DNA of 64,000 bases from an uncultured Pelagibacteraceae bacterium (lineage in GTDB: Bacteria > Pseudomonadota > Alphaproteobacteria > Pelagibacterales > Pelagibacteraceae). The notes under the pieces are model-generated. The model was not told the DNA's origin. It saw only the letters and a list, made by a program, of their open reading frames with translations, and made no database searches. The translations under genes were made by a program, and so were the position numbers. The stretch spans positions 25,890-89,889 of the forward strand of contig CACFOR010000004.1 of the NCBI GenBank assembly GCA_902567785.1, in the 5' to 3' direction. Shown here piece after piece: positions 5,412 to 62,118 of the stretch; positions within the stretch are counted from its first letter, which is position 1; each line of letters starts with the position of its first letter.

Positions 5412-6851
5412 ATGTCTGAAAAGATGCTTAAATTTGTAAATGTTGGTTTGCAAACACCAAATAAAAGGGATGTTGATAAAAGAGTTGATGACTTTAAAGA
5501 AATTTACGATGAGTTTATCAATGAAAAGGCCAAGGAACAATCAAGCAGATGTTCCCAATGCGGTGTTCCATTTTGTCAAGTTCATTGTCCCTTACATAAT
5601 AATATTCCGGATTGGTTAAAACTTACTGCAGAAAATAGAATAGAAGAAGCTAACGAATTAGCACATAGCACAAACAATATGCCAGAAGTTTGCGGCCGTA
5701 TTTGCCCACAAGATCGTTTATGTGAAGGGAATTGTGTTATAGAACAATCAGGTCACGGAACAGTAACAATAGGTTCTGTAGAAAAATATATAACAGACAC
5801 GGCATGGGAAAAAGGGTGGATTAAACCTATAAAAATTAAAAAAGAAATTGATCAATCAGTTGGAATTATTGGAGCTGGTCCAGCAGGGTTAGCTTGTGCT
5901 GAACAACTTAGAAAATTGGGATATAAAATAACCGTCTATGATCGTTATGATAGACCTGGGGGTTTATTAATTTATGGAATACCAAATTTTAAACTAGAAA
6001 AATTTGTTGTAGAAAGACGAACTAATCTTTTAAAAGAAAGTGGAATCAAATTTGTACAAAATATAGAAATAGGCAGAGATAAATCTCTTCAAGAATTAAG
6101 TGATAAACATGATGCCATTTTAATTTCTACAGGTGTTTATAAACCCAGAGAAGTAAATTTGCCAGGAAATAATTTAGAAAATATTTTTCCAGCAATGGAA
6201 TTTCTTACGGCTTCTAACCGCAAGGGTTTAGGAGATAAAGTTGAAAAATTTGACAATGGATTACTTAATGCAGAACATAAAAATGTTGTTGTTATTGGTG
6301 GTGGAGATACAGCAATGGATTGCGTAAGAACTGCCGTAAGACAAAACGCAAAATCTGTTAAATGCCTTTACCGAAGAGACAGAAAGAATATGCCTGGATC
6401 TGCAAGGGAAGTATATAATGCAGAGGAAGAAGGTGTAGAATTTATTTGGCTTTCAAATCCAAAAAAGTTTAGTGGAACAAAAAAAATTTCATCAGTTTTA
6501 GTTGAAAAAATGAAACTTGGTGAGCCAGATTCATCTGGTAGACAAAAGCCAGAATCTATAAAAAATTCTGATTTTGAAATTAAAGCTGATATAGTAATTA
6601 AAGCTTTAGGCTTTGATCCTGAAAATTTACCTGTTCTTTTTAAACATCCTAGTCTTCAAGTTTCAAAATGGGGAACTATTAAAATTAATTTAAAATCAAT
6701 GGAAACTAATATTCAAGGTGTCTTTGCAGCAGGAGATATAGTAAGAGGCGCGTCACTAGTTGTATGGGCAATTAGAGATGGTAGGGAAGCGGCAATAGCC
6801 ATCAATGAATATTTAAAATTTAAACAATTTAAAAAAACAGAAGCAGCATGA
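5412..6851 (+). CDS. gltD: Glutamate synthase (NADPH) small subunit
   Basis: 479 aa with an N-terminal Fe-S cysteine cluster (CSQCGVPFCQVHCP), GAGPAGLACA and GGGDTAMD dinucleotide folds. Its stop overlaps the gltB start (TGAATG). Confidence 0.9.
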   Translation: MSEKMLKFVNVGLQTPNKRDVDKRVDDFKEIYDEFINEKAKEQSSRCSQCGVPFCQVHCPLHNNIPDWLKLTAENRIEEANELAHSTNNMPEVCGRICPQDRLCEGNCVIEQSGHGTVTIGSVEKYITDTAWEKGWIKPIKIKKEIDQSVGIIGAGPAGLACAEQLRKLGYKITVYDRYDRPGGLLIYGIPNFKLEKFVVERRTNLLKESGIKFVQNIEIGRDKSLQELSDKHDAILISTGVYKPREVNLPGNNLENIFPAMEFLTASNRKGLGDKVEKFDNGLLNAEHKNVVVIGGGDTAMDCVRTAVRQNAKSVKCLYRRDRKNMPGSAREVYNAEEEGVEFIWLSNPKKFSGTKKISSVLVEKMKLGEPDSSGRQKPESIKNSDFEIKADIVIKALGFDPENLPVLFKHPSLQVSKWGTIKINLKSMETNIQGVFAAGDIVRGASLVVWAIRDGREAAIAINEYLKFKQFKKTEAA

Positions 6852-9800: not shown

Positions 9801-11351
9801 TTAATATCACCTCCCCCACACCATGATATTTATTCTATAGAAGATTTAGCACAGCTTATTTATGATCTTAAACAATCGAATCCAAAGGCAAGAGTTGGAG
9901 TAAAATTAGTAGCTTCCAGTGGAGTTGGGACTATTGCAGCCGGGGTAGCAAAGGCAAAAGCAGATGTTATTTTAATTTCAGGACATTCAGGAGGAACAGG
10001 TGCCAGTCCACAAACCAGTGTTAAATATGTTGGTGTACCTTGGGAAATGGGTCTTACTGAAGCAAATCAAATTTTAACTTTAAATAGTTTAAGACATCAA
10101 GTCACTCTAAGAACTGATGGAGGCATTAAAACTGGAAGAGATGTTGTAATGGCAGCCATGATGGGAGCGGAAGAATTTGGAATTGGAACCACATCTTTGG
10201 TAGCCATGGGCTGTATAATGGTAAGACAATGTCATTCAAATACTTGTCCCGTTGGCATATGTACTCAAGACGAAAGTTTAAGAAAAAAATTTACAGGAAC
10301 ACCAGAAAAAGTTGTAAATCTTTTTACTTTTATTGCAACAGAAGTTCGAGAAATTTTATCTGAATTGGGATTTAGAAATTTAAACGAAATTGTAGGAAGG
10401 ACAGATCTTTTAAAACAAGTAAGCAGAGGAACATCTGACTTAGATGATCTAGATTTGAGTCCTCTTTTAGTTCAAGCTGACCCAGGCCAAAATAATAGAT
10501 ATTGCTCGCCCGATTTAATAAATAAAGTCCCAGATACTTTAGATGAAAAAATTTATAAAACTATAGAAAGTTATATTGGTAAAAAAAGTAATAAAATTCC
10601 AAGTTTTGAAATTAAAAATACTCATAGAGCAGTGGGAACAAAGTTATCACACTATATTTATAACAAATATAAAAAAAATAATAATGAAAAGAATCTTCTC
10701 GAAATTAATTTATTTGGGTCGGCCGGCCAATCTCTAGGAGCTTTTGGAATTAAAGGTTTAAAAATAAATTTAACAGGAGATGCTAATGATTATGTAGGAA
10801 AAGGACTTTCGGGAGCAACAATAGTTATCAAGCCACCTTTTGAAAGTGGTTTAGTTACAAATGAAAATACAATTATAGGTAATACAGTTCTTTATGGAGC
10901 TACATCAGGCAAATTGCTTGCAGCAGGACAGTCTGGCGAAAGATTTGCAGTGAGAAATTCTGGAGCTGAAGCAGTCGTAGAAGGCTGTGACTCAAATGGT
11001 TGTGAATATATGACTGGAGGTATTGTAGTAATACTAGGAAAAATTGGAGATAATTTTGCAGCAGGTATGACGGGTGGTATGGCATTTGTTTATGATAAAA
11101 AAAATGAATTTGAAAATTATGTAAATTCTAACTCAGTAATTTGGCAAATACCCGAAACTGATTACTGGAAAGCTTGTTTAAAAAATTTAATTAAAGAACA
11201 TTTAAAAGAAACGCAGTCCCAAATAGCTAAAAGCATAATAGATAATTTTGATAGTGAACTAAAAAATTTTAAACAAATTTGTCCAAAAGAAATGCTTAAT
11301 AAATTATCAAATCCTATATCTTTAAAAAGAAAATTTTCTCAGGCTATTTAA
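6852..11351 (+). CDS. gltB: Glutamate synthase large subunit
   Basis: 1499 aa with an Ntn amidotransferase N-terminus (CGVGFIA), an FMN/Fe-S central domain and a C-terminal GXGXG beta-helix domain. Confidence 0.95.
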   Translation: MELYKKNLKKLIQGKVYDPSFEHDACGVGFIASTEGKKSRKVVEFGIQALKAVWHRGAVDADGKTGDGAGIHVEIPKDFFIERIENAGRKHKEGIICVGMIFLPRNDYASQEKCKTIVENELLSKNYYIYRWRQVPVNTKVLGIKAESNRPEIVQIIFKSNNKSLKSDELERELFVVRKKIEKQSNLQKIKDFYIASFSSRSIIYKGMFLAEALSEFYPDLLDERFISRFAIFHQRYSTNTFPSWDLAQPFRTLAHNGEINTIKGNINWMKIHEKDMNSKLFEEIESLKPVIGLGNSDSAALDNVFELLVRSGKSVPLAKLMLIPDAWSKRRKTVSKAHQQLFNFLNSTIEPWDGPAAIAATDGKWIIAAQDRNGLRPLRYTITSDKLLFAGSETGMISFPNEKIIFKGRLGPGQAIAIDFEKGQVHDSKSLKNKISKDYKKYNKQIIDLDKKFNITKEKFIFRGEELRRRQFLAGMNVEDMELILHPMVEDIKEAVGSMGDDTPAAVLSDKYRPFAHFFRQNFSQVTNPPIDSLRENEVMSLKTRFGNTGNILDFENLTEENIYVLDSPVLSNSQFEKFFEFFKRNTKILDCTFNIKDGLKKRLEDLRLEAETSVREGGKHLILSDKGTDEKKAPIPMALAIGAINSRLVNMGIRGFASINVQTSEVLDTHSFAVLLGVGATTVNPYIAFDSIYQRYEKKLFGKLSFKECVERYVKSVDNGLLKIMSKMGISVLSAYRGGCNFEAVGLSRSVVAEYFPGMISRISGIGIIGIEKKIKKLHQKAFEKNISILPIGGIYKYRKNGETHQYQGNLIHTLQSAVSSNSYEVYKKYAEGIYNLPIINLRDLLEFKKLNKSVSLEEVESIESIRKRFGSGSMSHGALSSEAHETLAIGMNRMGAASCSGEGGEDQKRFIRKENGDSSNSKIKQIASARFGVTIEYLNNCKEIEIKIAQGAKPGEGGQLPGFKVSKEIAKLRHSTPGVTLISPPPHHDIYSIEDLAQLIYDLKQSNPKARVGVKLVASSGVGTIAAGVAKAKADVILISGHSGGTGASPQTSVKYVGVPWEMGLTEANQILTLNSLRHQVTLRTDGGIKTGRDVVMAAMMGAEEFGIGTTSLVAMGCIMVRQCHSNTCPVGICTQDESLRKKFTGTPEKVVNLFTFIATEVREILSELGFRNLNEIVGRTDLLKQVSRGTSDLDDLDLSPLLVQADPGQNNRYCSPDLINKVPDTLDEKIYKTIESYIGKKSNKIPSFEIKNTHRAVGTKLSHYIYNKYKKNNNEKNLLEINLFGSAGQSLGAFGIKGLKINLTGDANDYVGKGLSGATIVIKPPFESGLVTNENTIIGNTVLYGATSGKLLAAGQSGERFAVRNSGAEAVVEGCDSNGCEYMTGGIVVILGKIGDNFAAGMTGGMAFVYDKKNEFENYVNSNSVIWQIPETDYWKACLKNLIKEHLKETQSQIAKSIIDNFDSELKNFKQICPKEMLNKLSNPISLKRKFSQAI

Positions 11352-15227: not shown

Positions 15228-15773
15228 GTGCCTTTTCCTAAACAAAATTATTTTCAAAAAAGGACAAAACCGAAAGGTCCTAGAACGAATGAAAGAATTC
15301 GTGCTCAAGAAGTTCAGGTAATAAGTAGCGAAGGAAAAAATTTAGGAACCTTTAATACACATGAAGCTATTAATATGGCAAGAGAGGAAGGACTAGATTT
15401 AATAGAGATTTCACCAAATGCCAATCCTCCCGTTTGTAAAATTATTGATATTGGTAAGTATAAATATGATATGCAAAAAAAAGCAAATAAAGCAAAAAGA
15501 AAACAAAAAATTATTAATTTAAAAGAAATAAAACTTAGGCCTGTTACCGAAATTCACGACTATAATTTTAAAATTAAAAATGCACAAAGATTTTTAGAGA
15601 AAGGAGATAAAGTTAAGTTTACAGTTTTATTTAAAGGAAGAGAAATGCAGCATACTCATTTAGGGCACGATTTAATGAAGAGAATTATTAATGATACCGC
15701 CAAACTTGGTAAAATTGAGGTGGAACCTAAATTTGAAGGAAAGCAGATCATTATGATAATTCAACCACTATAA
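15228..15773 (+). CDS. infC: Translation initiation factor IF-3
   Basis: 181 aa with an IRAQEVQVISSEG N-domain. The only upstream in-frame start is a GTG directly after the thrS stop. It sits in the thrS-infC-rpmI-rplT synteny. Confidence 0.9.
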   Translation: MPFPKQNYFQKRTKPKGPRTNERIRAQEVQVISSEGKNLGTFNTHEAINMAREEGLDLIEISPNANPPVCKIIDIGKYKYDMQKKANKAKRKQKIINLKEIKLRPVTEIHDYNFKIKNAQRFLEKGDKVKFTVLFKGREMQHTHLGHDLMKRIINDTAKLGKIEVEPKFEGKQIIMIIQPL

Positions 15774-17509: not shown

Positions 17510-19908
17510 TAACTTCTTTGTCATGGTTAAAAAATCATTTAGAAACGAAAGCAAACTTAAATCAAGTAGCAGAACGTTTGACAGAAATTGGACTAGAGGT
17601 AGAAAATATAAAATCATCAAATGAAAATTTAGATAACTTTATTGTTTGTAAAGTTGTGAAATCTCAAAAACATCCTAACGCAGACAAATTAAAGCTTTGT
17701 GATGTAGATATAGGATCGGGAGCATTAGTCAAAGTTGTATGTGGAGCTCAAAATGCTAGAGACGGCTTATTTGCGGTCTATGCACCTCCTGGAGCAGTTA
17801 TTCCAAAAACTAACATGAAATTAAAAATAGCAAAAATAAGAGGAATAGAATCTCATGGAATGCTTTGTTCAGGTTATGAACTTGATGAATCTTCAGACAA
17901 AGAAGGAATTATTGAATTAAATAAAAAAGAAAAAAATATTGGAGAAAAATATTTTAAAAATACTGGGGAAAAAACTATGGACATTGCTATTACTCCAAAT
18001 AGACCCGATTGTTTAGGAGTCAGAGGAATTGCTAGAGATTTGGCATCATCTGGTCTTGGACGTTTAAAAAAACAACCTCTTATCAAAATAAATCAAAAAT
18101 TTAAAAATCCAGTTAAGGTTTCAATAAGGAAAGAAAAAGGACAAGGATGTGCTATTTTTGGAAGCGTTTATATTAGAAATGTTCAAAACAAAGAGAGTCC
18201 TGATTGGTTAAAAAAAAGAATTATTTCTTTAGGTTTAAAACCAGTTTCAGCAATCGTAGATGCTACTAATTATGTAATGTTTGATTTAAACAGACCTTTG
18301 CACGCTTATGATGCTGATAAAATTAACCAAGAAATTATTGTTAGAAATTCAAAAAAAGGAGAGTCATTCGAAGCTCTAGATAATAAAAAATATACACTTG
18401 AAAATAACATGTGTGCAATAACTGATAAATCAGGCGTTTTAGGTCTTGGAGGAATTATTGGTGGAACCAGATCTGGTACGGAGATTTCTACAAAAAATAT
18501 TTTATTAGAATCTGCATATTTTTTTCCATCATCAACCAGAAAAACCTCAAAAATACTAAATATTGATACTGATGCAAAATTTAGGTTTGAAAGAGGGATA
18601 GATCCAGATTCTATAAAATTAGGTCTAGAACTTGGTATGTGCATGATATTGGATATGTGTGGTGGTGAAGCAAGTAAATTTTCAATAGTAGGTAAGTTAA
18701 AAGATGAAAGAAAAATGATTGATTTAGAACCAGAGAAATTTTCAAAAGTTATCGGATTTACAATTACTAGTGTAGAAATAAAGAAAATTTTAACGTCTCT
18801 AGGCTGTTCTCTGAAAACGAATGGAAAGAAAATGAAAGTTCTTCCACCGACTTGGAGACCAGATATTAAAGAAGATATAGACCTTATAGAAGAGTTAACA
18901 AGAATTAAAGGATACGATAAAGTACCTTTAATTAGTCCAGAAAAAGAAAATGTTAAAGATACATTAAATTATAGACAAAAACTTTTTCATTTTGCTCAAA
19001 GATCAGTTGCGTCAAAAGGCTATACAGAAGCAGTTACTTGGTCGTTTACAGATTCAAAAACAAATGTTCTATTTTCAGAATTAAAAAGTGAGATAAAATT
19101 ATCTAATCCTATTTCAACCGATTTAGATGTACTGAGGTCATCTCTTTATTCAAATTTAATTATTGGAGCTAAAAAAAATATTCATAGAAATTTTGAAGAT
19201 CTAATGTTATTTGAGATAGGGCCTGTTTTTAAAGGTAATAAGCCTGGGGAACAATTAACCATGATTGGTGCAATTAAAACTGGAAAATATTCAAGAAAAA
19301 ATTGGATTGAAAAAGAAAGAAATTTTGATGTCTTTGATATTAAAAACGATGCTTTGAGAACTTTAAACGAAATTGGCATTGATAGTTCAAAGATAACAGT
19401 AAGCAATAAATCAAAAAAATGGTACCACCCAGGAAGATCTGGCTTATTGTCATTGGGATCGGAAAGTGGTCTAGAATTGGCATACTTTGGAGAAATTCAT
19501 CCATCAATTATTAAAAAATTAGATCTAAAAGCAGATAATATTTTAGGTTTTGAAATTTTTTTAGAAAATGTACCTGAGTCTAGAAAAAAAATTAGAGAAG
19601 CAAAGCCCCAATTTGCTGTTTCTGATTATCAAAAAGTGATCAGAGATTTTGCTTTTGTTATTGATGAAAAATATAGTTCTGGAGAAATTATAAATTTTGT
19701 TAAAAAAATTGATAAGGATTTGATCAAAAATGTTAAAATTTTTGATGTTTATCAGGGAGAAAATATTACACCAGGTAAGAAATCTATTGCCTTTAGTGTA
19801 ACGTTGGAACCTAAAGATAAAACTTTAGAAGAAAAAGATATTGATGAAATAAGTAAAAAAATCATATCTACAGTTCAAGAAATAACGGGTGCCACTTTAA
19901 GAACCTAA
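17506..19908 (+). CDS. pheT: Phenylalanyl-tRNA synthetase beta subunit
   Basis: 800 aa with a tRNA-binding N-domain, B3/4, B5 and FDX-ACB domains. It overlaps pheS by 4 nt. Confidence 0.95.
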
Positions 19909-21716
19909 TGTCTACAAATGAAAATATACGCAATTTTTCAATAATTGCGCACATTGATCACGGAAAATCTACTCTGGCAGATAGATTGATACATAAGTGT
20001 GGAGGTCTTACGGAAAGAGAAATGAAGGATCAAGTTTTAGATTCAATGGATATAGAGAGAGAAAGAGGAATTACTATAAAGGCACAAACAGTTCGATTAA
20101 ATTATAAAGCTCAGAATGGAAAAGACTATATTTTAAATATCATTGATACGCCGGGTCATGTAGATTTTAGTTATGAAGTAAGCAGATCTCTGTCAGCTTG
20201 CGAAGGATCTATATTGATAGTTGATAGTGCACAAGGTGTTGAGGCACAAACTTTGGCGAATGTGTATCAGGCTCTTGATAATAATCACGAAATTATTCCA
20301 GTACTTAACAAGATAGATTTGCCTGCTTCAGATACAGATAAAGTAAAAAAACAAATAGCAGATGTAATAGGAATAGATGTTACTAACACAATAAATTGCT
20401 CAGGAAAAACGGGAGAAGGAGTAGACGAAATTTTAGAATCCATAATAAAAATTTTACCTCCGCCAAAAGGTAACATAAAAAATCCCTTGAAATGTTTACT
20501 CGTGGATAGTTGGTATGACAGTTATTTAGGAGTAGTAATTTTAGTTAGAACTATAGACGGAAGCTTGAAAAAAGGAATGCAAATAAAAATGATGTCAAAT
20601 AATAGTAAACACACAATTGAAAAAGTGGGTGTGTTTACTCCAAAACCAAAAGATATGGATGTAATTTCATCAGGAGAAATTGGTTTTATTATTACTGGGA
20701 TTAAAAATTTATCAGATACTAAAGTTGGTGACACCATATGTGATGTAGCAAATCCAATAGATAAACCTCTGCCTGGATTTAAACCCAGCAAGCCAGTAGT
20801 TTTTTGTGGTTTATTTCCAGTAGATAATTCTGAGTATCAAAAACTTAAAGATGGTATCGCAAAGTTAAAACTTAATGATTCTAGTTTTTCTTATGAGCCT
20901 GAGGCCTCAAGTGCTTTGGGCCTAGGTTTTCGTTGTGGTTTTTTAGGTTTGCTTCACTTAGAGATAGTAACCCAAAGATTAGAAAGAGAATTTAATATTA
21001 ATCTCATTACAACAACACCTGGTGTAATTTATAAGATTAACAAAAGAGATGGTTCAACTAAAGAATTACAGAATCCAACAGACATGCCAGATCCAACTCA
21101 AATTTTATCAATAGAAGAGCCTTGGATAAAGGCAACAATAATTACTCCCGACAAGTATTTGGGATCAATAATAAAAATATGCCAGGATAAAAGAGGAATT
21201 CAAAATAATTTAACTTATTCCGGAAATCGTGCTGTCCTGAATTATGAATTACCACTTAACGAAGTAGTTTTTGATTTTTATGATCGACTAAAATCTATTT
21301 CAAGCGGATATGCTAGTTTTGACTATGAAATAACAGAATACAAAGAAGGAAATTTAGTTAAAATGGGTATACTTGTTAATTCAGAACCTGTCGACGCTTT
21401 ATCTATGATTATTTATAAAGATTTTGCTCAATCACAAGGAAGACTAGTTTGTGAAAAGCTTAAAGAATTAATCCCTAGGCATAATTTTCAAATTCCAATT
21501 CAAGCTGCTATCGGAGGAAAAATTATTGCTAGAGAAACAATTAAAGGATTTAAAAAAGATGTTCTCACAAAAATTCATGGGGGAGGAGCACGAGACAGAA
21601 AAAGAAAGCTGTTAGATAAACAGAAAAAAGGTAAAGCAAGAGCTAAACAGTTTGGAAAAGTGGAAATTCCGCAAGAAGCTTTTATTGGAGTTTTAAAAAT
21701 AAATAAGGAAACTTAA
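19908..21716 (+). CDS. lepA: Elongation factor 4 (LepA)
   Basis: 602 aa with GTPase motifs [14 protein letters not shown] and NKID, and a LepA C-terminal domain. Confidence 0.95.
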
Positions 21717-21718
21717 AT

Positions 21719-21808
21719 GGAGAGATGGCCGAGCGGTTTAAGGCGCAGGCTTGGAAAGCTTGTGTACTGTCAAAGGTACCGTGGGTTCGAATCCCACTCT
21801 CTCCGCCA
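21719..21808 (+). tRNA. tRNA-Ser (anticodon GGA), long variable arm, CCA encoded
   Basis: Hand-folded. The acceptor is GGAGAGA/TCTCTCC. The anticodon stem is CAGGC/GCTTG with loop TTGGAAA. The T arm is GTGGG-TTCGAAT-CCCAC. Total length is 90 nt. Confidence 0.9.
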
Positions 21809-23380
21809 TTAACTCTGATCCTTTTTTTCTTGGTCTGAATTTTCCTGTTCGAGAGGTAGACCTAACCTTCTTTCTTCCATTTTTTTTAAATTTTCCCTTT
21901 CAATCTCTTTTGTTGTTTCAACTTCTTTAATTTGTATTTTTCTAGCTTCTTCTGCCCTTTGTTTTCTTTCTTGTTCTTCTTTTAATCTCCTGCTTTTCTC
22001 TTCTTCTTTTAATTTTTTTTCTATTATTCTTTTTGCCTCTTCAAGACGGTTTGATCTATCTCTTTCTATTTCTTCTATTTTATTTTTATGAATTTTATCC
22101 AATTTTCTTCTAGCTTCATTTTCTTCTGATATTCTTTTTTCTTTTAATTTATTTATTTCCTCAAGGTGTGAGAGTTTTTTTTGTTCAGCGTCATCTAATT
22201 TATTTTTGTAAGTTTGTTCCGTTTTTTCAATTAATTTTCTCTCTTCTTCAATTCCTTTTTCTTTTTTTATTTTTATTAAATTTAATTTTTTTGAAGTTTC
22301 ATCTTCATCTGCTTTTATTCTTCTTTCCTCTTCTTCTAGCAATCTTCTTTCTTCATCTTCTTCTAATTTTATTCTTTTTTCTTTTTTAATTTTTCCCTCT
22401 TCTTCTTTCAATCTCCTATTTTCTTCTAGCAATCTTCTTTTTTCTTCTTCTTTAAATCTTATATTTTCTTCCTCTTCTAATATTCTTATAGATTCTTCTT
22501 CTAAGCTTTTTTCTCTTTCTTTTAGTAATATTTGTTCATCTCTTATTTTTCTTATGATCTCATCATTTGATCTTCTTTTTTCTTCAGCTTTTAACCTTCT
22601 TTCTTTTTCTTTTTTTAAATTATTCTCTTCTTTTTCTTTTAGTATTCTGTTTTCTTCTTTTATCTTTGATAGTTCTTCTAATTCTAATCTTCTTGTTTCT
22701 TCAGCTTTAGTTTTTTTTAATTCTTTTTTTGCGATTCTTCTTTGTTTTTCTTTTTCTATTTTTTCCTTATAATGTTGATCCAATTTCCCCTTTTCTATCT
22801 GTTCTTCTTCTATTCTTTTTTCTTTTAATTTATTTATTTCCTCAATAGCTATTATGTTTTCATTTTCTATTTTTTCTAATTTTTCATTGTAAGTTTGGTT
22901 CATCTCTTCCAATTTTTGTTGCTCATCTATTATTCGCTTTTCTTTTAATTGGGAAATCCTTTCAAGTTCTCCCAGTTTTTCTTGTTCTGCTTTTGCTATA
23001 CCCTCCTTATAAATTGGATCAATTTTTTCCCGCTCTTCTTGTTCTTCTTTTGTCTTTCTCTCTTGTTCAATTCTTATAAAGCTAATTTCTTTTAATCTAT
23101 TTTCTTCCTCTTTTTTTAACTGTTTTTCTTCTTCTTTTAACTGTTTTTGTTCTTCTTTAATTTGTTTTTCCCTATTTTTTTCTTTTAATTTTTCTTTTTC
23201 CTTTTTTTCTCTTTCGCGTTTTTCTGTAAAATTTTTATAAATTTTGCCTAGAGTTTTAAATTTAAGATCTACAGCTTTTTGCAGATCTATACCCGCTCCA
23301 TTAATTTTATTTTTATTATAATTTTTGGTTTTTCTTTTTTTAACTCTCTTTTTAGTTTTTTTTCTCATAATCCCTCTCAA
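21809..23380 (-). CDS. E/K/R-rich charged coiled-coil repeat protein (function unknown)
   Basis: 523-aa uninterrupted ORF, which is unlikely by chance in AT-rich DNA. It has a basic N-terminus followed by near-continuous EEKRRLKEEE-type heptad-like sequence with three (E)INKLKEKRI..E...KLD..YK.KIE repeats. Its stop codon directly abuts the tRNA CCA. Confidence 0.6.
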   Translation of the reverse strand: MRGIMRKKTKKRVKKRKTKNYNKNKINGAGIDLQKAVDLKFKTLGKIYKNFTEKREREKKEKEKLKEKNREKQIKEEQKQLKEEEKQLKKEEENRLKEISFIRIEQERKTKEEQEEREKIDPIYKEGIAKAEQEKLGELERISQLKEKRIIDEQQKLEEMNQTYNEKLEKIENENIIAIEEINKLKEKRIEEEQIEKGKLDQHYKEKIEKEKQRRIAKKELKKTKAEETRRLELEELSKIKEENRILKEKEENNLKKEKERRLKAEEKRRSNDEIIRKIRDEQILLKEREKSLEEESIRILEEEENIRFKEEEKRRLLEENRRLKEEEGKIKKEKRIKLEEDEERRLLEEEERRIKADEDETSKKLNLIKIKKEKGIEEERKLIEKTEQTYKNKLDDAEQKKLSHLEEINKLKEKRISEENEARRKLDKIHKNKIEEIERDRSNRLEEAKRIIEKKLKEEEKSRRLKEEQERKQRAEEARKIQIKEVETTKEIERENLKKMEERRLGLPLEQENSDQEKKDQS

Positions 23381-23473
23381 ACAAAGAATTATTGTACACC
23401 TATTTTAACTGATAAAGGATACTAAATAGTTCGCTTTGGGTTTCGTAATTGAGGCATATATACCAATGTTCTC

Positions 23474-23540
23474 GGCGCAGGCTTGGAAAGCTTGTGTACT
23501 GTCAAAGGTACCGTGGGTTCGAATCCCACTCTCTCCGCCA
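23474..23540 (+). repeat. Direct repeat copy 2 of the tRNA-Ser 3' 67 nt (att core-like)
   Basis: Identical by eye to 21742..21808 (ggcgcaggcttggaaagc...ctctctccgcca). Confidence 0.9.
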
Positions 23541-23620
23541 TTAATTTAAGCTTTTCTATTCTTAAGTGTGGCGTTAAAATCGGTTTGGTCGCACTATGGT
23601 CGCAAATGAAATGAAAAAAA
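23541..23620 (+). repeat. Left (P'-like) arm, copy 1
   Basis: About 75/80 nt identical to 24557..24636. It contains GGTCGCActatGGTCGCA, two direct motifs 11 bp apart. Confidence 0.8.
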
Positions 23621-24162
23621 ATGAGAAATACTTTGTTGAGAATTCAAAAAAACTAGACGAAGCTTTTAAAATTCTAGAGTTGGAGCCCGAAACTGATATA
23701 GCCAAAGATAAAACAGAAGGTTATTTAATAGACGTTAATAAGATGGCTGAAAATATAAAAGGCGATATTATAAAAATGGCGCATTTTTTAAAAAATTTAA
23801 AAGATGTTCCAACTTATCCAGATGGTCCAATAAATGACGTTCTAAAAAAAAGATTTTTTGAAGTTTTTAACGCCATGTCAATTTATGTGTGTGCTATTAA
23901 AAAAATAAAAAATAAAGATGAAGCGATCTCAGAAATTAATCGCCATCTATATAGAGAAAAAACGTATAATGACCCAATAAACAAATTTATGATGCCAATA
24001 GCTGGTGTTTTTTTGCTAGCATGTTCAGTTTTAATGATCACAACGGACGCACCAAATATTATGAAAATTCCAGATAATAATCGTTGGTGGCTGACAGTAT
24101 TTCTTGCTGCGGTGGGTTTTAGCATCCTTGTTAGAAGTTATTGGTTTCGAAATAAAAAATGA
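23611..24162 (+). CDS. Hypothetical protein with two C-terminal TM helices
   Basis: The ORF track gives 23596..24162. The first 15 nt lie inside the conserved arm repeat, so the ATG at 23611 (MKKNEKYF...) is preferred. The C-terminus carries hydrophobic segments MMPIAGVFLLACSVLMI and WWLTVFLAAVGFSILV. Confidence 0.5.
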   Translation: MKKNEKYFVENSKKLDEAFKILELEPETDIAKDKTEGYLIDVNKMAENIKGDIIKMAHFLKNLKDVPTYPDGPINDVLKKRFFEVFNAMSIYVCAIKKIKNKDEAISEINRHLYREKTYNDPINKFMMPIAGVFLLACSVLMITTDAPNIMKIPDNNRWWLTVFLAAVGFSILVRSYWFRNKK

Positions 24163-24407
24163 AAAAGATTAAAAAAAAAACGGAAACAAAAAAGGAAATT
24201 GAAGAAAGGGTAAGAAAAGAAGAAAAAGAATCAAATTTTCGTGAAAAAAAAAGAAATAGCCACATACTCTTCATGGGGATTTTCGGTGCTATAATTGGAA
24301 TAATATTTGTTAGTGTTAAATATCCATACGCAACTACCTTTGGAATAATAGGTGGAGCTATCACTGGTGGTTTGATTGGTGCAGCGATCGGAGATCATAC
24401 TGGATAA
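24159..24407 (+). CDS. Small membrane protein with glycine-zipper C-terminus
   Basis: 82 aa with an ATGA overlap to the upstream ORF. It has a K/E-rich N-terminus, then GIFGAIIGIIF...GIIGGAITGGLIGAAIG (GxxxG repeats). Confidence 0.45.
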   Translation: MKKIKKKTETKKEIEERVRKEEKESNFREKKRNSHILFMGIFGAIIGIIFVSVKYPYATTFGIIGGAITGGLIGAAIGDHTG

Positions 24408-24408
24408 C

Positions 24409-24489
24409 GATCGCACTCTGGTCGCAATCCAACTTAAATTTTAAGATTTCTCTGTTAAATAAATATTGATTTTGCTACGTTAAAAAATT
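24409..24489 (+). repeat. Right (P-like) arm, copy 1
   Basis: About 75/81 nt identical to 26651..26731. It begins GaTCGCActctGGTCGCA and ends ...attgattttgctacgttaaaaaatt directly before the tRNA fragment. Confidence 0.8.
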
Positions 24490-24556
24490 GGCGCAGGCTT
24501 GGAAAGCTTGTGTACTGTCAAAGGTACCGTGGGTTCGAATCCCACTCTCTCCGCCA
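24490..24556 (+). repeat. Direct repeat copy 3 of the tRNA-Ser 3' 67 nt
   Basis: Identical by eye to 21742..21808. Confidence 0.9.
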
Positions 24557-24636
24557 TTAATTTAAGCTTTTCTAATATTAAGTGTGGCGTTAAAATCGGT
24601 TTGGTCGCACTGTGGTCGCAAATGAGATGAGAAAAA
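24557..24636 (+). repeat. Left (P'-like) arm, copy 2
   Basis: See 23541..23620. It contains GGTCGCActgtGGTCGCA. Confidence 0.8.
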
Positions 24637-25427
24637 TACAAAAATGCCCTGCATGTAGAAAAGCAAAAGGCGGAAAAAGAATAACACTAATTAATGCAAA
24701 ATTCGTTCACGAAAATTGCGCTGAATTTTTAGAAAACAGACCAAATGAAATTTCTCGTGAAATGAACTATCTTTATATAAAAAAAAACAGCTTAATAAAT
24801 AAAATAAAATCTATATTTAGTTTTAACCTAGAAAATAGCACTGAATTTATTGAAGCTAAGTTAACTTTATTAAGTCATGAAAGTCAGAAAATTCAAAATT
24901 TAAGAAAAAAAATTTATCACTTTTGGCCTGACTACCCGCCAGATTGGGAGGAAAGACGACAAGAAGCTTTAGAAAAAGCAGAAGAACAGTGTGAGGATTG
25001 TGGAGAATCAAAAGATTATTATGGTTTTTTGCACGTTCACCATATCAAATTCAGAGGAAGAGGTGGAAATCATAAGCCTTCAAATCTAATGGTTCTTTGT
25101 CACAACTGTCACGAGGAAAAACATGGAGGAATCACTTTCGGTGATAACAAAAAAACTTATAGACCCTCAGCTTATCCTGAACGTATAAAAACTATAAAAA
25201 AAGCAATTAAATTGAAGAAAATTGTTAATTTCACTTATTATAAAGTTAAAGAAAAAAGATTTATGAAAAGAAAAGTGAAACCTCATAAGCTAACAAAGGA
25301 AATTTTAGTTGATGGAAAAATAAAGTATATCGTTGATAATTTATATTTGGTTGGATATTGTTTTTTGAGAGAAGATAGAAGAACTTTTAGATTAGACAGA
25401 ATGAAGGGTTTAAAAATAGAAAAATGA
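24627..25427 (+). CDS. HNH endonuclease fused to a C-terminal WYL domain (N-terminal Cys-rich segment)
   Basis: The ORF track gives 24612 (GTG) to 25427; the first ATG is at 24627. The HNH core is CEDCG...HVHHIKFRGRGGNHKPSNLMVLCHNCHEEKH. The WYL-like C-terminus is VNFTYYK...RKVKPHKL...LYLVGYCFLREDRRTFRLDRM. The N-terminus has CPACRK...HENC. Confidence 0.75.
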   Translation: MRKIQKCPACRKAKGGKRITLINAKFVHENCAEFLENRPNEISREMNYLYIKKNSLINKIKSIFSFNLENSTEFIEAKLTLLSHESQKIQNLRKKIYHFWPDYPPDWEERRQEALEKAEEQCEDCGESKDYYGFLHVHHIKFRGRGGNHKPSNLMVLCHNCHEEKHGGITFGDNKKTYRPSAYPERIKTIKKAIKLKKIVNFTYYKVKEKRFMKRKVKPHKLTKEILVDGKIKYIVDNLYLVGYCFLREDRRTFRLDRMKGLKIEK

Positions 25428-25597
25428 AAACATTTGAAAAAGAATTTGAACTTAAAACTAAATTAGAAACATTAGATCACTACGTTCGATCCATACTTAA
25501 TAAATTTGATCCTGACGATGAAATAGAAGTTGATATTCAAGAATTTGATGGAAAGAAGATAGTGAACGTTAAGATATTAGATAGGGTGCTGAATTAA
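25424..25597 (+). CDS. Small hypothetical protein (57 aa, acidic), below the ORF-track size cutoff
   Basis: Hand-translated as MKTFEKEFELKTKLETLDHYVRSILNKFDPDDEIEVDIQEFDGKKIVNVKILDRVLN*. It has an ATGA overlap with the HNH-WYL stop and a TAATG overlap with the next ORF. Confidence 0.4.
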   Translation: MKTFEKEFELKTKLETLDHYVRSILNKFDPDDEIEVDIQEFDGKKIVNVKILDRVLN

Positions 25598-25830
25598 TGG
25601 ACGACAAAGATTTCAAAAAAAAGTTTGAGGAAGCAAATCCAAATATAAAACTTGTACGAAGAACAAAAGAAAGAACTGAAGCATCAGCAAAACGCGTGAC
25701 ATTTGCGTTAGGTGGAATGGGTCTATTTATATTTATGGGCATAATGTCTGGAGCACCGTTCTGGGTACATCTTGTGGTGGTTCCATTAATTGGTGCGATT
25801 TTTTATTTTGGAGCTCCAAGTGAAAAATAA
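25597..25830 (+). CDS. Small membrane protein (two predicted TM helices)
   Basis: 77 aa with a charged N-terminus followed by FALGGMGLFIFMGIMSGAPFWVHLVVVPLIGAIFYF. Confidence 0.45.
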   Translation: MDDKDFKKKFEEANPNIKLVRRTKERTEASAKRVTFALGGMGLFIFMGIMSGAPFWVHLVVVPLIGAIFYFGAPSEK

Positions 25831-26107
25831 AAAAAAACATAAATATGGAACTGGAAATATTATAGATGATTTTCCGCATTATCCCGACAATTATAGGGAT
25901 CACCGCACATATATTTATCAACTAAGTGAATCAAAAATACAAACACATCCAAATAAAAGTATGGAAGGGAAAAAACAATGGTCTGTTGTTCAATATCGAA
26001 ATGTTTTGCCACCGCGTGTAGTTAATCTTTGGAGCTTTCCAACAAAAGAAGAAGCAGAATCATTCATGAAAAAACATGATTTTGTGATCCCTTCAAAACA
26101 AAATTAA
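25790..26107 (+). CDS. Hypothetical protein (start uncertain; an in-frame GTG near 25817 would remove most of the overlap)
   Basis: 105-aa ORF with no recognisable motif. It ends TAATG-coupled to the nuclease gene. Confidence 0.4.
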   Translation: MVRFFILELQVKNKKKHKYGTGNIIDDFPHYPDNYRDHRTYIYQLSESKIQTHPNKSMEGKKQWSVVQYRNVLPPRVVNLWSFPTKEEAESFMKKHDFVIPSKQN

Positions 26108-26562
26108 TGAAAAAACTTTTAACGATCTTGGTTCTGGGCTTGTTGTTTTGCAGCAACAGTTTCGCAGATAGCCTAAGAGTAGTGGATGGCGACACAATCG
26201 TGCTCAATGGTGAGAAAATTCGTTTCTCTGGCATAGACACACCTGAATTAAAACAAACGTGCATGAAGGGAGATGAAAAGGTTTTCTGTGGAAAAACAGC
26301 AAAGATGCTTCTTATTAAAAAAATAGGCAATGAAACACCTGAATGTATCAGCGAAGGAAAGGATGCTTATAAAAGAACGTTAGCAGAATGTTTTGTTAAC
26401 GGGGAAAGTTTATCATCATATCTTGTGAGAAGTGGTTATGCTTTTGCTTATCGAAAATACTCAAAAAAATTTATTAAAGACGAAGAGTTTGCAAAAGAAA
26501 ATAAACTAGGGATGTGGGCGATGATGTTTCAATATCCATGGGATTTTAGAAAGGCATCATAA
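26107..26562 (+). CDS. Secreted staphylococcal-nuclease (SNase/thermonuclease)-like nuclease
   Basis: 151 aa with a signal peptide (MKKLLTILVLGLLFCSNSFA). It carries the SNase signature VVDGDTIVLNGEKIRFSGIDTPE, plus ...RTLAECF...LVRSGYAFAY...EEFAKENKLGMW. Confidence 0.8.
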   Translation: MKKLLTILVLGLLFCSNSFADSLRVVDGDTIVLNGEKIRFSGIDTPELKQTCMKGDEKVFCGKTAKMLLIKKIGNETPECISEGKDAYKRTLAECFVNGESLSSYLVRSGYAFAYRKYSKKFIKDEEFAKENKLGMWAMMFQYPWDFRKAS

Positions 26563-26650
26563 TAATATGCAATATTTCTTTGTTCCTATAATTGGTTTGA
26601 TTATATTCATACTTATCGTGATGCTGGTCTGAAAAAATGATAAATAATCT

Positions 26651-26731
26651 GGTCGCACTCTGGTCACAAACCAACTTCAATTTTAAGATTTTTCCGTTAA
26701 ATAAATATTGATTTTGCTACGTTAAAAAATT
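26651..26731 (+). repeat. Right (P-like) arm, copy 2
   Basis: See 24409..24489. It begins GGTCGCActctGGTCaCA. Confidence 0.8.
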
Positions 26732-26798
26732 GGCGCAGGCTTGGAAAGCTTGTGTACTGTCAAAGGTACCGTGGGTTCGAATCCCACTCTTTCCGCCA
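26732..26798 (+). repeat. Direct repeat copy 4 of the tRNA-Ser 3' 67 nt (one C>T difference at 26791)
   Basis: 66/67 identical to 21742..21808. It reads ctctTtccgcca where the tRNA has ctctCtccgcca. The downstream flank differs from the arms. Confidence 0.9.
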
Positions 26799-26826: not shown

Positions 26827-28119
26827 TTAGACACATTCTATAACTCCATTGATTCCCAATTTAACTTTAGCTTCCAGGCCATAAGCAGGAGTTTCATCTA
26901 TTTCTAATACAGTAACTCTTTTTTCTAGTACATTGTAACTACTTTTAGTTGAGCACAGCTCTGACGCTTTACTTTCAAAGTCAGATTTTAACTGATCCAT
27001 AATTTTTTTTCCTTTTTTGGTGTTGGTTTCGTACTGACTAAGTCTTACCCATTTCTTTGCGACAATTGATATATTTAACGTATCCTTTCCTGAGTATTTT
27101 TTTGTTAGAACATCTGTTTTACTTATACATGGAACGCTAGATCCATCTTTATTAATGCATTGGCCCATTCCTTCCTCTTGCCCTTCGAGAAATTTACCTA
27201 CATAGGCAGTTCCATCTTCATAACTAAAAGTTCCTTGTCCGTGCCTTTTTCCATTAGCAAATTCTCCAACGTATTTTTTTCCATCAGGGTAAAACAAGGT
27301 TCCTTCGCCGTGTAATTTATCATTTTGAAAATCTCCTAAGTACTTTCTTCCGTCATTCCAAATTTTGGTACCATTTCCATGACTTTTACCGTCTTTCCAC
27401 GCACCAAAATATTTGTCTCCATTAGACCATTCAAACGTTCCATATCCATTTGGCAAAAAATTTTTAAATTCACCAACATATTTTGCACCACCCGGATATA
27501 AAGATATTCCTTTAAGAATTTTTCCATTTATAAAATAGCCAATGTATTTATGACCACTATTAGATATGTATGAACCCCTACAATTTGTCCATTTTTCATA
27601 TTTATTACCCTGGCACTCGCTTAATGAACTTTGTTCTTTTTTAATTTTTTCTTGTGCTTTTAATATTTCTTTTTTCTCTTTACTAATTTTCACTTCATCA
27701 ATTTTTTTTTTGTCCCAATCAGCTTTTACGTTTTTACATAAGCTTTGTCTTTTATCATACAAATTATATAAATCGATATCAGATCCCTTTTCTCTTTTGA
27801 ATTGTAATTTAAGTACAGATTTAGAATCAGAATTTAAAAAATATTGATAGTAAAGATTTTCACCTTGGGCACTCTTTATTTTTTCGCTTGTAATTTTATT
27901 TTTTTCAATTAATTTTATTTTGTCCTTAAAATTTTGCACGGCTCCATCAGCAGCTCTTAATTCCACTTCAATAACATTTTTATTAATATCAATCACATAA
28001 TTCCCTTCTACTGCATTGCTTATTATACATTCTTTAAAATAGTACGATTCCGCAAAGCTTAGGTTGCAAAAAAATATGTTTAATATAGCTATAAAAAGTA
28101 CTCTTTTCATATTAATCAT
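26827..28119 (-). CDS. Secreted MORN-repeat protein
   Basis: 430 aa with a signal peptide (VLFIAILNIFFCNLSFA). It has about 6-7 tandem YxGxxxxxxxxGxG MORN units (YVGEFKNFLPNGYGT, YFGAWKDGKSHGNGT, YLGDFQNDKLHGEGT, YVGEFANGKRHGQGT...). Confidence 0.8.
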   Translation of the reverse strand: MINMKRVLFIAILNIFFCNLSFAESYYFKECIISNAVEGNYVIDINKNVIEVELRAADGAVQNFKDKIKLIEKNKITSEKIKSAQGENLYYQYFLNSDSKSVLKLQFKREKGSDIDLYNLYDKRQSLCKNVKADWDKKKIDEVKISKEKKEILKAQEKIKKEQSSLSECQGNKYEKWTNCRGSYISNSGHKYIGYFINGKILKGISLYPGGAKYVGEFKNFLPNGYGTFEWSNGDKYFGAWKDGKSHGNGTKIWNDGRKYLGDFQNDKLHGEGTLFYPDGKKYVGEFANGKRHGQGTFSYEDGTAYVGKFLEGQEEGMGQCINKDGSSVPCISKTDVLTKKYSGKDTLNISIVAKKWVRLSQYETNTKKGKKIMDQLKSDFESKASELCSTKSSYNVLEKRVTVLEIDETPAYGLEAKVKLGINGVIECV

Positions 28120-28289: not shown

Positions 28290-29027
28290 TTAAGTAATTC
28301 TTCTTATTCCTATCACTTTTAAATTTGCCGTTTTGTAAATTCTATCAATTGTATTTTTGATAGGCATTCTAACTGTACTTTTCAGAGGACCATAAGCGTG
28401 TATTAGGCTTTTATTTGAAATAGCAATAGCCACGTGCCCTTTCCAAAATATTAAGTCATTTTTGCGAATATTTTTTAGTTTAATTTTTTTTTTAAAATAA
28501 CTAATTTGATCTTTGCTATCTCTTGGACAATATTTGTTATTAAAATTAAAAAAAAGCTGAATCAGGCCCGAACAATCAACCCCTGAAAAATGCTTTCCTC
28601 CCCAAACATATTTTGTTCCCAAAAATTTATTTAAACCATTAAACATATCTTTGCTTTTATATTTAATTTTTTTTAAATCATTTTTCTTTATCCAGAAATT
28701 ATCAAATTTATAGAACTTATTTTTTTTGTGTGTAATTATAATTTTGGATCCAAAGGATATTTTTTTTTTAGTTTTAAATTTCAAATTTGGTTTCGTGTAT
28801 AGGTTCGCAAATAAATTATATACTTTGTGTGTACACTTTTTATTAAGAGGAAAATTTTTTTTTTTAATAAATCCTTTATAACCGTCTAAATTATTTTTGA
28901 TTTTAATCCAAGATCCTTTTTTTTTAATTATCTTAAAAGAATCTCCATATAAAAGTTGAGTTACAAGTAGTTTTGATTGAATACTTTTTTTTTTATATAC
29001 GTTTATGACTGAGAGATTGCTTCTCAC
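28290..29027 (-). CDS. NlpC/P60-family cell-wall peptidase with N-terminal SH3-like region
   Basis: 245 aa with the catalytic Cys context YVWGGKHFSGVDCSGLIQ and His context GHVAIAIS...IHAY. It overlaps ampG by 4 nt. Confidence 0.8.
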   Translation of the reverse strand: MRSNLSVINVYKKKSIQSKLLVTQLLYGDSFKIIKKKGSWIKIKNNLDGYKGFIKKKNFPLNKKCTHKVYNLFANLYTKPNLKFKTKKKISFGSKIIITHKKNKFYKFDNFWIKKNDLKKIKYKSKDMFNGLNKFLGTKYVWGGKHFSGVDCSGLIQLFFNFNNKYCPRDSKDQISYFKKKIKLKNIRKNDLIFWKGHVAIAISNKSLIHAYGPLKSTVRMPIKNTIDRIYKTANLKVIGIRRIT

Positions 29028-30394
29028 TGCAATTTAAGTTTGTCTCGAATAAACCAAAGAAAAATTAATGAAGGTATTACCATGACAGCTGTAATTACAA
29101 AGAATATACCCCAGTCACCATTTAACCAATCTACCAATGCCCCAGATGAAGCGGCTAAAGTTGTTCTTCCTGCAGTTCCTATTGAAGCAAGAAGAGCATA
29201 CTGCGTTGCAGTATAGGTTCTATCAACTAATAATGAAATAAAAGCAACAAAGGCAACAGTAGCAAATGCAGCTGCCATGTCATCAAAAATTACAGCTATA
29301 GCAAAAAGCCATTCAGATTTTCCTGACCACGCAAGTAAAGAAAACAAAAGATTTGTTGAAGCCATAAGTATTCCAGAAATAAACATAGCTTTTATAACTC
29401 CAGAACGAATTGCAAACAAACCTCCCAACAAGGTAAATACGACTGTCGTTATCCATCCCAAACCTTTTGAATAAAGAGCTATATCTCCTTTAGAAAATCC
29501 TATTTCTTTATAAAATATAATTGACATTCTTCCAAGAAAAGCCTCACCAATTTTAAAAAGAAAAACAAATCCCAAAATACCTATAGCAATTTTAAATCCA
29601 TTTTTTTTAAAAAAACTTATTATTGGGCCAGCAACAGTACCACTAACCCATGCAATTGATTTAGTAGCAACGTTAGAAGAGCCTAATTTTTGTTCTATCA
29701 TTTGATCTGTATTTTTTTGAGATTCTTGTCGTTCATTGGTCTCTTTTTCATCAACAAACATTAAGCCAATGTTGCAGGCGATAATAACAATACCAAGAAC
29801 TAAAAAAGTAATTTGCCAATAATTTTCAAATCCAGCTTGCTGTAAATATTCTGCCGCATTTAAAGCTATTACTCCACCTAATTTATAACCTGTCCACCAA
29901 CCAACAACTGCCATAGCAGCTCCAGCTTGCATCGATGAACCTTCATTTACACCAATCTGTTCTATTCTTAATGCATCTACCGTGATGTCTTGAGTAGCAG
30001 AAGCAACAGCAATAATTAATCCAACCGTAATTACTAAAGCTAAATTTGTTGTTGGATCTATAATACTCCAGCATACCAAGCTAATCAAAATAACAGCTTG
30101 CATAGTAACGATCCAACCACGACGATGTCCAATTTTATTAGTTAACCAAGGGATTCTAATTCTATCTATTATTGGAGCCCACAAATAATTAAAGGCATAG
30201 ACTGCAAATATAAGTCCGGCCCAACCGATTGTACTTCGACTTAATCCATCTTCTTTAAGCCACAAGCTTAAACTGCTGCCAATCAAAACCCAAGGAAATC
30301 CACTGATAATTCCCAAAAGTAAAATTCTTGCCATCCGTTTTTCAAAGTAGACAGAAAAAGTTTCAGACAAAGTTTGTTTTTTATATATTTCCAT
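29024..30394 (-). CDS. ampG: AmpG-family muropeptide MFS permease
   Basis: 456 aa with about 12-14 TM segments and an AmpG-like N-terminus (LLGIISGFPWVLIGSSLSLWLKEDGLS...YLWAPIIDR). Confidence 0.85.
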   Translation of the reverse strand: MEIYKKQTLSETFSVYFEKRMARILLLGIISGFPWVLIGSSLSLWLKEDGLSRSTIGWAGLIFAVYAFNYLWAPIIDRIRIPWLTNKIGHRRGWIVTMQAVILISLVCWSIIDPTTNLALVITVGLIIAVASATQDITVDALRIEQIGVNEGSSMQAGAAMAVVGWWTGYKLGGVIALNAAEYLQQAGFENYWQITFLVLGIVIIACNIGLMFVDEKETNERQESQKNTDQMIEQKLGSSNVATKSIAWVSGTVAGPIISFFKKNGFKIAIGILGFVFLFKIGEAFLGRMSIIFYKEIGFSKGDIALYSKGLGWITTVVFTLLGGLFAIRSGVIKAMFISGILMASTNLLFSLLAWSGKSEWLFAIAVIFDDMAAAFATVAFVAFISLLVDRTYTATQYALLASIGTAGRTTLAASSGALVDWLNGDWGIFFVITAVMVIPSLIFLWFIRDKLKLQ

Positions 30395-62042: not shown

Positions 62043-62118
62043 GGCCAGGTAGCTCAGTCGGTAGAGCAGAGCCCTGAAAAGGCTTGTGTCGGCGGTTCGA
62101 TTCCGTCCCTGGCCACCA
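62043..62118 (+). tRNA. tRNA-Phe (anticodon GAA), CCA encoded
   Basis: Hand-folded. The acceptor is GGCCAGG/CCTGGCC. The anticodon stem is GAGCC/GGCTT with loop CTGAAAA. The T arm is GGCGG-TTCGATT-CCGTC. Total length is 76 nt. Confidence 0.9.

Follow-up and report, generated by a model that had tools for sequence, protein, structure and literature searches.

Tandem cassettes between tRNA-Ser(GGA) 3'-end repeats in a Pelagibacteraceae genome have attP-like ends related to those of circular integrase elements

Tandem elements and islands bounded by partial tRNA genes are already known. Cis-mobilizable elements (CIMEs) of Streptococcus are reportedly moved by accretion-mobilization through integrative and conjugative elements (ICEs), in work attributed to Pavlovic (2004) and Bellanger (2011); CIMEs come from conjugative elements of tens of kilobases that integrate at the 3' end of fda. 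Prochlorococcus tycheposons occur as tandem elements separated by partial tRNAs, with degenerate remnants and extra partial tRNAs in islands (bioRxiv 10.1101/2020.12.28.424599), and the additive islands of Methylophilaceae are defined by recurring tRNA 3'-end repeats. A 2025 SAR11 population study mentions in passing partial tRNA repeats in four islands and, in its passage on the islands, reports a single integrase and an absence of canonical mobile elements (PMC11796062). Among the virion-encapsidated integrative mobile elements (VEIMEs) of Pelagibacter, ~20% are without an integrase, and use of one in trans has been suggested (Eppley et al., PMC9618062). Here we describe a 64,000-nt stretch of an uncultured Pelagibacteraceae genome (contig CACFOR010000004.1; hereafter the window) in which three small gene modules lie in tandem behind a tRNA-Ser(GGA) gene, bounded by copies of its 3' end, and in which two of the modules have ends homologous to the attachment site (attP) of a family of circular integrase elements.

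A single intact tRNA-Ser(GGA) gene is present in the 64-kb window. Its last 67 nt (hereafter the core) begin with the 3' strand of the D stem, take in the anticodon arm, the long variable arm, the T arm and the acceptor strand, and end with the encoded CCA. An earlier note on this DNA had claimed four copies of this 3' end, all in one orientation and delimiting modules of about 1.7, 1.0 and 2.2 kb; alignment confirms both points, with two extra copies exact and a fourth bearing one mismatch, and with start-to-start spacings of 1732, 1016 and 2242 nt (1665, 949 and 2175 nt between cores).

21719..21808, + strand: intact tRNA-Ser(GGA) gene with core copy 1 (21742-21808), attL-like (ARAGORN; Rfam, 58 bits)
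23474..23540, + strand: core copy 2, 100% identical (repeat search, alignment)
24490..24556, + strand: core copy 3, 100% identical (repeat search, alignment)
26732..26798, + strand: core copy 4, C>T at 26791, distal and attR-like (alignment)

Each copy gives a blastn E value of about 1e-34. Copy 4 is 98.5% identical, and its single substitution changes the acceptor pair G4-C into G4-U; copies 1-3 are directly followed by TTAA. No further core copy or relic lies elsewhere within the window, the Rfam tRNA model is passed by the full gene and not by the partial copies, and no RNA family besides tRNA scored above threshold in the window. Direct repeats of the tRNA 3' part thus bound the inserts, with the intact tRNA at one end, as in tRNA-targeted elements. 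Two candidate features were rejected: Rfam matches to Plastid-psbI-rps4 on the opposite strand of all four copies were sub-threshold, and TTAATTTA, which follows many cores and was considered as a mark of element ends, is the native tRNA-downstream sequence in the cassette-free loci L204, L158 and L224, and therefore belongs to the extended identity block rather than to the cargo.

Modules 2 and 3 carry unrelated cargo, yet share conserved ends of ~68-89 nt after the core and ~79-85 nt before the next one, the left arms of the two being 95.7% and the right arms 93.7% identical. In the repeat search the matching blocks measure ~89 nt behind the core, at 94% identity, and ~79 nt ahead of the following core, at 96%. 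Each of these ends is closed on its cargo side by a tandem direct repeat, GGTCGCA-N4-GGTCGCA, which occurs four times in the window, solely at the ends of modules 2 and 3, against 0.00 occurrences expected by chance.

23541..23609, + strand: module 2 left arm, P'-arm-like, with motif GGTCGCActatGGTCGCA at 23587-23605 (homologous to the int-proximal arm of integrase elements)
24405..24489, + strand: module 2 right arm, P-arm-like, with motif GATCGCActctGGTCGCA at its start, 24409-24427 (motif scan, arm alignment)
24557..24626, + strand: module 3 left arm, with motif GGTCGCActgtGGTCGCA at 24603-24621 (motif scan, arm alignment)
26647..26731, + strand: module 3 right arm, with motif GGTCGCActctGGTCACA at 26651-26669 (motif scan, arm alignment)

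Once circularized, such a cassette would hold a unit of ~220 bp composed of the right arm (85 nt), the core (67 nt) and the left arm (68 nt), in which the order is motif, 62 nt, core, 46 nt, motif. By analogy with the lambda-type paradigm, we infer that this geometry would be that of an attP in which the tandem motifs are putative arm-type binding sites of an integrase. On its left side the identity block starts just 5' of the anticodon stem; taken with the classes of tRNA integration site reportedly distinguished by Williams (2002), this suggests a crossover in the anticodon loop.

The core allele of the window was also used to scan metagenome contigs, at least 120 of which carry an identical core (L numbers denote loci). 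Among the contigs listed, arms of the module 2/3 type flank at least ten different cargos, and similarity ends exactly at the tandem motif on both sides. Other types of right end have the same layout, with a tandem motif at about -85 followed by the block ATTTTrAGATTAAATwAayGTTGAT, and arms of different types combine freely at the core. Between elements, the two halves of each tandem motif vary together, the pairs being GGTCGCA/GGTCGCA, GATCGCA/GATCGCA, TGTCGCA/TGTCGCA, GATCACA/GATCACA and TGGACACT/TGGACACT; homogenization and selection are both possible reasons for their identity. The core is the exact breakpoint of many short-read contigs, as would be expected of a repeat with variable neighbors, and a 29-nt left-arm pattern found no match in the metagenome contigs.

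An integrase family for this core was found both integrated and circular. In at least eight contigs (L139, L142, L182, L184, L239, L199, L200 and L213), a gene for a 330-aa tyrosine recombinase (PF00589, E = 1.2e-23) starts ~90 nt to the right of an identical 67-nt core. The order in L182 is lepA, tRNA-Ser, int; a second context has lepA, tRNA-Ser in another allele, then int; and a 1.08-Mb Pelagibacterales genome has lepA, a methyltransferase gene, tRNA-Ser, int, AAA_25, three cargo genes and a second full tRNA-Ser. L184 and L239 are separate contigs of the same 6,780-bp element, circularly permuted and each with a terminal repeat, with the gene order int, two open reading frames (ORFs) without assigned function, and a 724-aa primase-like protein (DUF5906). 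A 5,392-bp period is common to six independent contigs, which code for the integrase together with a primase/helicase. Tandem dimers are seen in L267 and L268, with unit identities of 98% and 83%. The autonomous relatives thus include circular or concatemeric contigs of 6,780 and 5,392 bp with joined ends. A database search at a threshold of at least 45% identity placed the integrase family in about 96 clusters, one of them labelled Candidatus Pelagibacterales.

In every integrase-bearing member a tandem motif lies 20-25 nt upstream of the int ATG and is followed by AAATGAAAGGAAG. The cassettes L133 and L195 have in their left arm exactly the motif that precedes int in L139, TGTCGCActgtTGTCGCAaatgaaagg; the cassettes L123, L207 and L216 likewise share their left-end motif, GATCGCAatgtGATCGCAaatgaaagg, with the 5.39-kb circle; and the variant of the window, GGTCGCAttacGGTCGCA, is present in the P arm of L257 and L260. 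In the alignment, cassette cargo begins exactly where the ribosome-binding site of int would be. This identity of motif and position indicates that the cassette ends correspond by homology to the two attP arms of the autonomous elements, and that cargo has taken the place of int and the rest.

Several features of these elements are recorded as side observations. Some carry a full-length tRNA-Ser (L257 at 9820-9909 and 15444-15534, L260 at 51-140 and 6514-6603, and L140), so that their integrated form is flanked by two complete tRNA-Ser(GGA) genes. In L199 (260-1234) and L200 (105-1172) int is interrupted, with first ORFs of 56 and 143 aa and split ORFs; these may be pseudogenes or sequencing errors, and are consistent with decay of autonomous into non-autonomous elements. 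A G+C-rich non-coding stretch with inverted or repeated GTCGCT/AGCGAC lies to the left of the core in the 6.78-kb circle (L184 at about 265-565, equal to L239 at about 4700-5010), and could represent an origin or P-arm region. In IMG/VR, scans for exact matches to the 45-nt core and to the arm motif gave none, integrase searches found relatives of only 21-27% identity, and no record of the GenBank phage collection searched contained the attP, the matches there reflecting generic tRNA-Ser core similarity.

The autonomous relatives have the same layout as tycheposons, with int, primase/helicase and small cargo, and share with them streamlined marine hosts and integration into a tRNA gene by means of a tyrosine recombinase. 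By contrast, the host here is SAR11 and the target tRNA-Ser(GGA), and the recombinase and replication module that is the hallmark of tycheposons is present in the related autonomous elements and absent from the window modules, which nevertheless have a conserved attP-like unit. VEIMEs, compared here by description, likewise include small integrase-bearing elements and concatemers integrated in Pelagibacter genomes; they are phage-satellite-like, whereas no packaging or capsid-related genes were detected in the integrase elements found here, and the main text of the VEIME paper has no mention of tRNA (PMC9618062).

Taken together, we consider it likely that tRNA-Ser(GGA) is an integration hotspot, that modules 2 and 3 are minimal-attP cassettes mobilized in trans or by accretion, and that module 1 is an older remnant. 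The interval between lepA, tRNA-Ser(GGA) and the NlpC/P60-ampG pair would then serve as the hotspot for small integrative elements of SAR11 type, whose autonomous members, of 5.4-6.9 kb, carry genes for a tyrosine integrase and a primase/helicase and are found as circles or concatemers. The attP of these members is made up, in order, of a P arm with tandem GrTCrCw-N4-GrTCrCw, the 67-nt copy of the tRNA-Ser 3' end, a P' arm, and the same motif upstream of int. Each integration would regenerate the tRNA gene and leave a displaced 67-nt copy, and repeats of the process would build a tandem array, in which modules 2 and 3 would keep the whole ~220-bp attP unit, with cargo starting exactly at the position of the int start, whereas module 1 would be an older single-gene insertion with truncated or diverged arms. 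Cassettes would be excised and re-inserted at any core copy by the integrase of an autonomous relative acting in trans, which we regard as the most likely route; alternatively, they may travel with an autonomous element after accretion. The proposal of the earlier note, that the array arose by repeated site-specific integration at the tRNA 3' end, is to this extent supported.

Several points weigh against this account. No integrase of the cognate family lies within the 64-kb window (tblastn; best E = 0.13 with the family hidden Markov model), neither module 2 nor module 3 was seen in circular or excised form, and among the at least 120 same-core contigs listed there was no match to the cargo of module 2 or to the interior of module 3, apart from its staphylococcal-nuclease-like (SNase) gene, which recurs. 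The mobility of modules 2 and 3 hence rests on evidence at the level of the family. No integrase element was found with the exact GGTCGCA/GGTCGCA left-arm variant of the window; nearest to it are L257 and L260, with GGTCGCA in their P arm, and elements with GATCGCA or TGTCGCA ahead of int. Instead of an arm site, the tandem motif could be an operator for the int promoter, and RecA-dependent recombination between repeats of 67-220 nt would give the same junction patterns.

The population around the locus varies as the earlier note had anticipated, in both number and content of modules between conserved flanks.

19908..21716, + strand: lepA, conserved left flank (ORF; homologues with 87-97% amino-acid identity beside the same tRNA in at least 40 contigs)
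26827..28119, - strand: MORN-repeat protein, right neighbor, variable in the population (Pfam MORN)
28290..30394, - strand: NlpC/P60 (28290-29027) and ampG-like permease (29024-30394), conserved right flank (in at least 31 and at least 26 contigs, respectively)

The conserved frame opens with pheS, pheT and lepA, continues with 0-4 kb of glycosylation genes that differ between contigs, with tRNA-Ser and with a variable stretch, and closes with NlpC/P60, ampG and trkH. In L204 and L155 the variable stretch is empty, the tRNA being followed by NlpC/P60; in L223, L181 and L206 it consists of a MORN protein 38-66% identical to that of the window, with no cassette; and in L158, L189 and L224 of an SHOCT lipoprotein. 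Other contents are seen in L169, in L123, where another cassette, a core and module 1 follow one another, and in L215, where the order is SNase cassette, core, module 1 and MORN. Since module order in L215 and L123 differs from that in the window, the outcome that the earlier note had named as refuting it, the same three modules in identical order in all relatives, was not seen among the contigs listed. Its description of the flanks as core genes stands for lepA, NlpC/P60 and ampG but not for the MORN gene, which in relatives is absent, replaced or only 38-66% identical (variable in L223, L181, L206, L225, L201 and L144) and may itself be old cargo.

Other cassettes, too, contain the SNase gene of module 3, in two cases inverted, so that it is found in three contexts and two orientations; L227 has solely this gene and the right arm in common with module 3. 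This recurrence in different contexts marks the cassettes as mosaic. On the upstream side, lepA ends 2 nt before tRNA-Ser in the window; in L137, L147, L192, L140, L153 and L126, lepA and the tRNA are separated by 0.8-5.7 kb of genes for glycosyltransferases, methyltransferases, epimerases and radical-SAM proteins, so that this side, too, is a variable region, and in L126 two such genes are found downstream of the tRNA instead.

A genome collection was scanned with a pattern (T arm plus acceptor) that is generic and common across phyla, and at least 17 Pelagibacteraceae loci were obtained. In at least 17 other Pelagibacteraceae species, tRNA-Ser(GGA) is present once, with no partial copies within 8-kb blocks; their anticodon stem is CACGC/GTGTG, versus CAGGC/GCTTG in the lineage of the window (21745-21762). 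The elements of each lineage carry the matching tRNA-Ser allele (loci L004-L115 and L263), which suggests that element core and host tRNA co-evolve. Genes for tRNA-Phe and tRNA-His are also present close to the end of the window, at 62043-62118 and 62944-63020, with no partial copies of either in the window; a 2026 preprint gives this pair as the conserved left boundary of the Pelagibacter hypervariable region HVR2.

The gene content of the three modules is as follows.

21809..23473, - strand: module 1, a gene for a 523-aa K/E-rich, coiled-coil-like protein (21809-23380, minus) and a 93-nt right-end relic (23381-23473) (ORF list)
23596..24407, + strand: module 2 cargo, a 188-aa protein (23596-24162) and an 82-aa glycine-rich membrane protein (24159-24407) (ORF list)
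24612..26562, + strand: module 3 cargo, an HNH+WYL nuclease-like protein (24612-25427), small ORFs (25424-25597, 25597-25830 and 25790-26107) and an SNase-like protein (26107-26562)

The true start of the 188-aa protein is probably the ATG at 23611. Neither module 2 protein has a significant match to a Pfam, PHROG or PADLOC family, and the K/E-rich protein of module 1, whose gene has internal repeats with a period of 120 nt (40 aa), has no match in these three collections either. In module 3, Pfam identifies WYL (1.3e-13), HNH (1.2e-9) and SNase (9.4e-17) domains, and PADLOC a ZorE-like HNH match and a WYL match; the N-terminus of the SNase-like protein resembles, by eye, a signal peptide. Modules 1-3 encode no site-specific recombinase of their own: Pfam finds no Phage_integrase domain in any module ORF, and no recombinase or replication protein in the three modules. 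Their small size follows from this lack of integrase and replication genes, which makes them non-autonomous. The HNH gene of module 3 stands at the int position, and one homologue of the integrase, P0096 (284 aa, from a 3-kb contig), has HNH domains fused to a partial Phage_integrase domain. A compositional anomaly was considered and rejected, module G+C being like that of the flanks, and scans for promoters and terminators were uninformative, with fewer hits than in shuffled sequences.

Module 1 differs from the other two in its apparent age. The gene that it carries ends directly against the tRNA, stop codon next to CCA, and the 93-nt right end of the module is non-coding. Homologues 62-96% identical abut the tRNA-Ser core in at least 12 contigs, where decay of the right-hand core is graded, from one mismatch (L238) through about 15 (L127) to an almost erased copy (L164). 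Comparison of these contigs points to an old and widespread resident, the distal repeat of which would decay when unused; the right-hand core (copy 2) is plausibly pristine in the window because module 2 integrated into it. The idea that the modules represent repeated integrations thus holds with the qualification that module 1 appears to be an old, widespread insertion and not a recent one.

The principal rival explanation is that past integrations laid down the repeats and arms, and that present gain, loss and reordering proceed by integrase-free homologous recombination, between repeats of 67-220 nt or with incoming DNA that shares them. Free combination of arm types at the core is expected from recombination within the core as well, no integrase is found in the window, and the mosaic cassettes, with the SNase gene in three contexts and two orientations, require recombination away from the core. 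Against this, arm conservation ends precisely at the tandem motifs in at least ten cassettes with unrelated cargo, which fits an attP bound by protein; the arms match elements that encode an integrase and occur as circles; and unused core copies decay, whereas copies 1-3 of the window are identical. The sharp boundary and the decay of unused copies favor a site recognized by protein, and we regard homologous recombination as an unlikely explanation of the present dynamics.

More doubtful still is the view that all three modules are immobile fossils of complete integrase elements which have lost int and rep by deletion. It suits module 1, which is widespread, with a left arm truncated to the stop codon of the gene and a right-hand core that decays elsewhere, and the interrupted integrases of the relatives L199 and L200 may be pseudogenes; independent deletions, however, would not yield one and the same cargo boundary in many cassettes of the module 2/3 type, the arms and cores of modules 2 and 3 are intact, and the same set of arms bears many cargos and sits at different positions in arrays. 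That the array is an assembly artefact, the second refuting outcome named by the earlier note, is very improbable: although many short-read contigs break at the core, repeats of 150-240 nt can mislead assemblers into mis-joining sequence across cells and the relative order of modules 2 and 3 hangs on few arm differences, all junction types of the window other than that of module 1, core and type-A arm have independent counterparts elsewhere, contigs with more than one copy are known (L123, L169, L207, L211, L221 and L238), and the four copies have distinct flanks, copy 4 with its own single-nucleotide polymorphism.

With trans-mobilized cassettes as the preferred reading, the closest functional parallels are informative for what they share with this locus and for where they depart from it. 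Like CIMEs, the cassettes are non-autonomous, keep attL and attR and have no recombination genes, and CIMEs sit in tandem with, and can be mobilized by, an autonomous element with the same att site; at the level of sequence, the cassettes would qualify as CIME-like, since they retain the attL and attR of an autonomous family and have lost its recombination genes. Unlike CIMEs, they measure only 0.5-2.2 kb, and their partners are replicative circles of 5-7 kb without conjugation genes. Additive islands, as reported, also consist of cassettes behind a tRNA, split by copies of its 3' end and strain-variable between conserved flanks; those reports describe the repeats alone, whereas here the cassette ends can be connected with the attP of one defined family of integrases and with its circles. 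Integron arrays, too, are tandem series of small, mostly integrase-less cassettes, each with its own recombination site, with the first gene co-oriented and one fixed insertion point. Here, by contrast, there is no resident intI, attI or Pc, the recombination site looks like a ~220-bp tRNA-derived attP with direct-repeat arms rather than an attC hairpin, and the integrase would be lambda-like, with arms, and is itself mobile. Probes of the C3 family found no tyrosine recombinase in the window, although a distant IntI could escape them.

A further proposal, which we hold tentatively, is that tRNA-Ser(GGA) is an integron-like cassette platform without a resident integrase, at which integrases arrive transiently on circular replicative elements of 5-7 kb. 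Cassettes of less than 2 kb would consist of cargo and a minimal attP of ~220 bp, with the first gene in the place of int behind the int promoter or arm region, and the transient integrases would capture, reshuffle and export them.

SAR11 is the most abundant bacterial group in the ocean. Its Pelagibacter pangenome is described as open in a 2026 preprint, which covers 135 Pelagibacter genomes and leaves tRNA-Ser and partial tRNAs unmentioned (10.64898/2026.04.03.716430). What is new here is the tRNA-Ser system of SAR11, together with cassettes that have no integrase but preserve a complete, conserved attP corresponding to that of a defined family of circular integrase elements. The locus offers a concrete mechanism, in the form of a tRNA-Ser(GGA)-specific integrase family with circular forms and of cassettes that retain the attP arms and core. 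If mobilization in trans is true, it would explain how single genes, such as those for defense nucleases and surface proteins, move between streamlined genomes at minimal cost, and would extend the tycheposon concept from Prochlorococcus to SAR11 in a more miniaturized, integron-like form. If the tRNA gene also acts as a cassette platform, this would mean cheap exchange of single genes, including defense nucleases, in an organism regarded as almost free of mobile elements.

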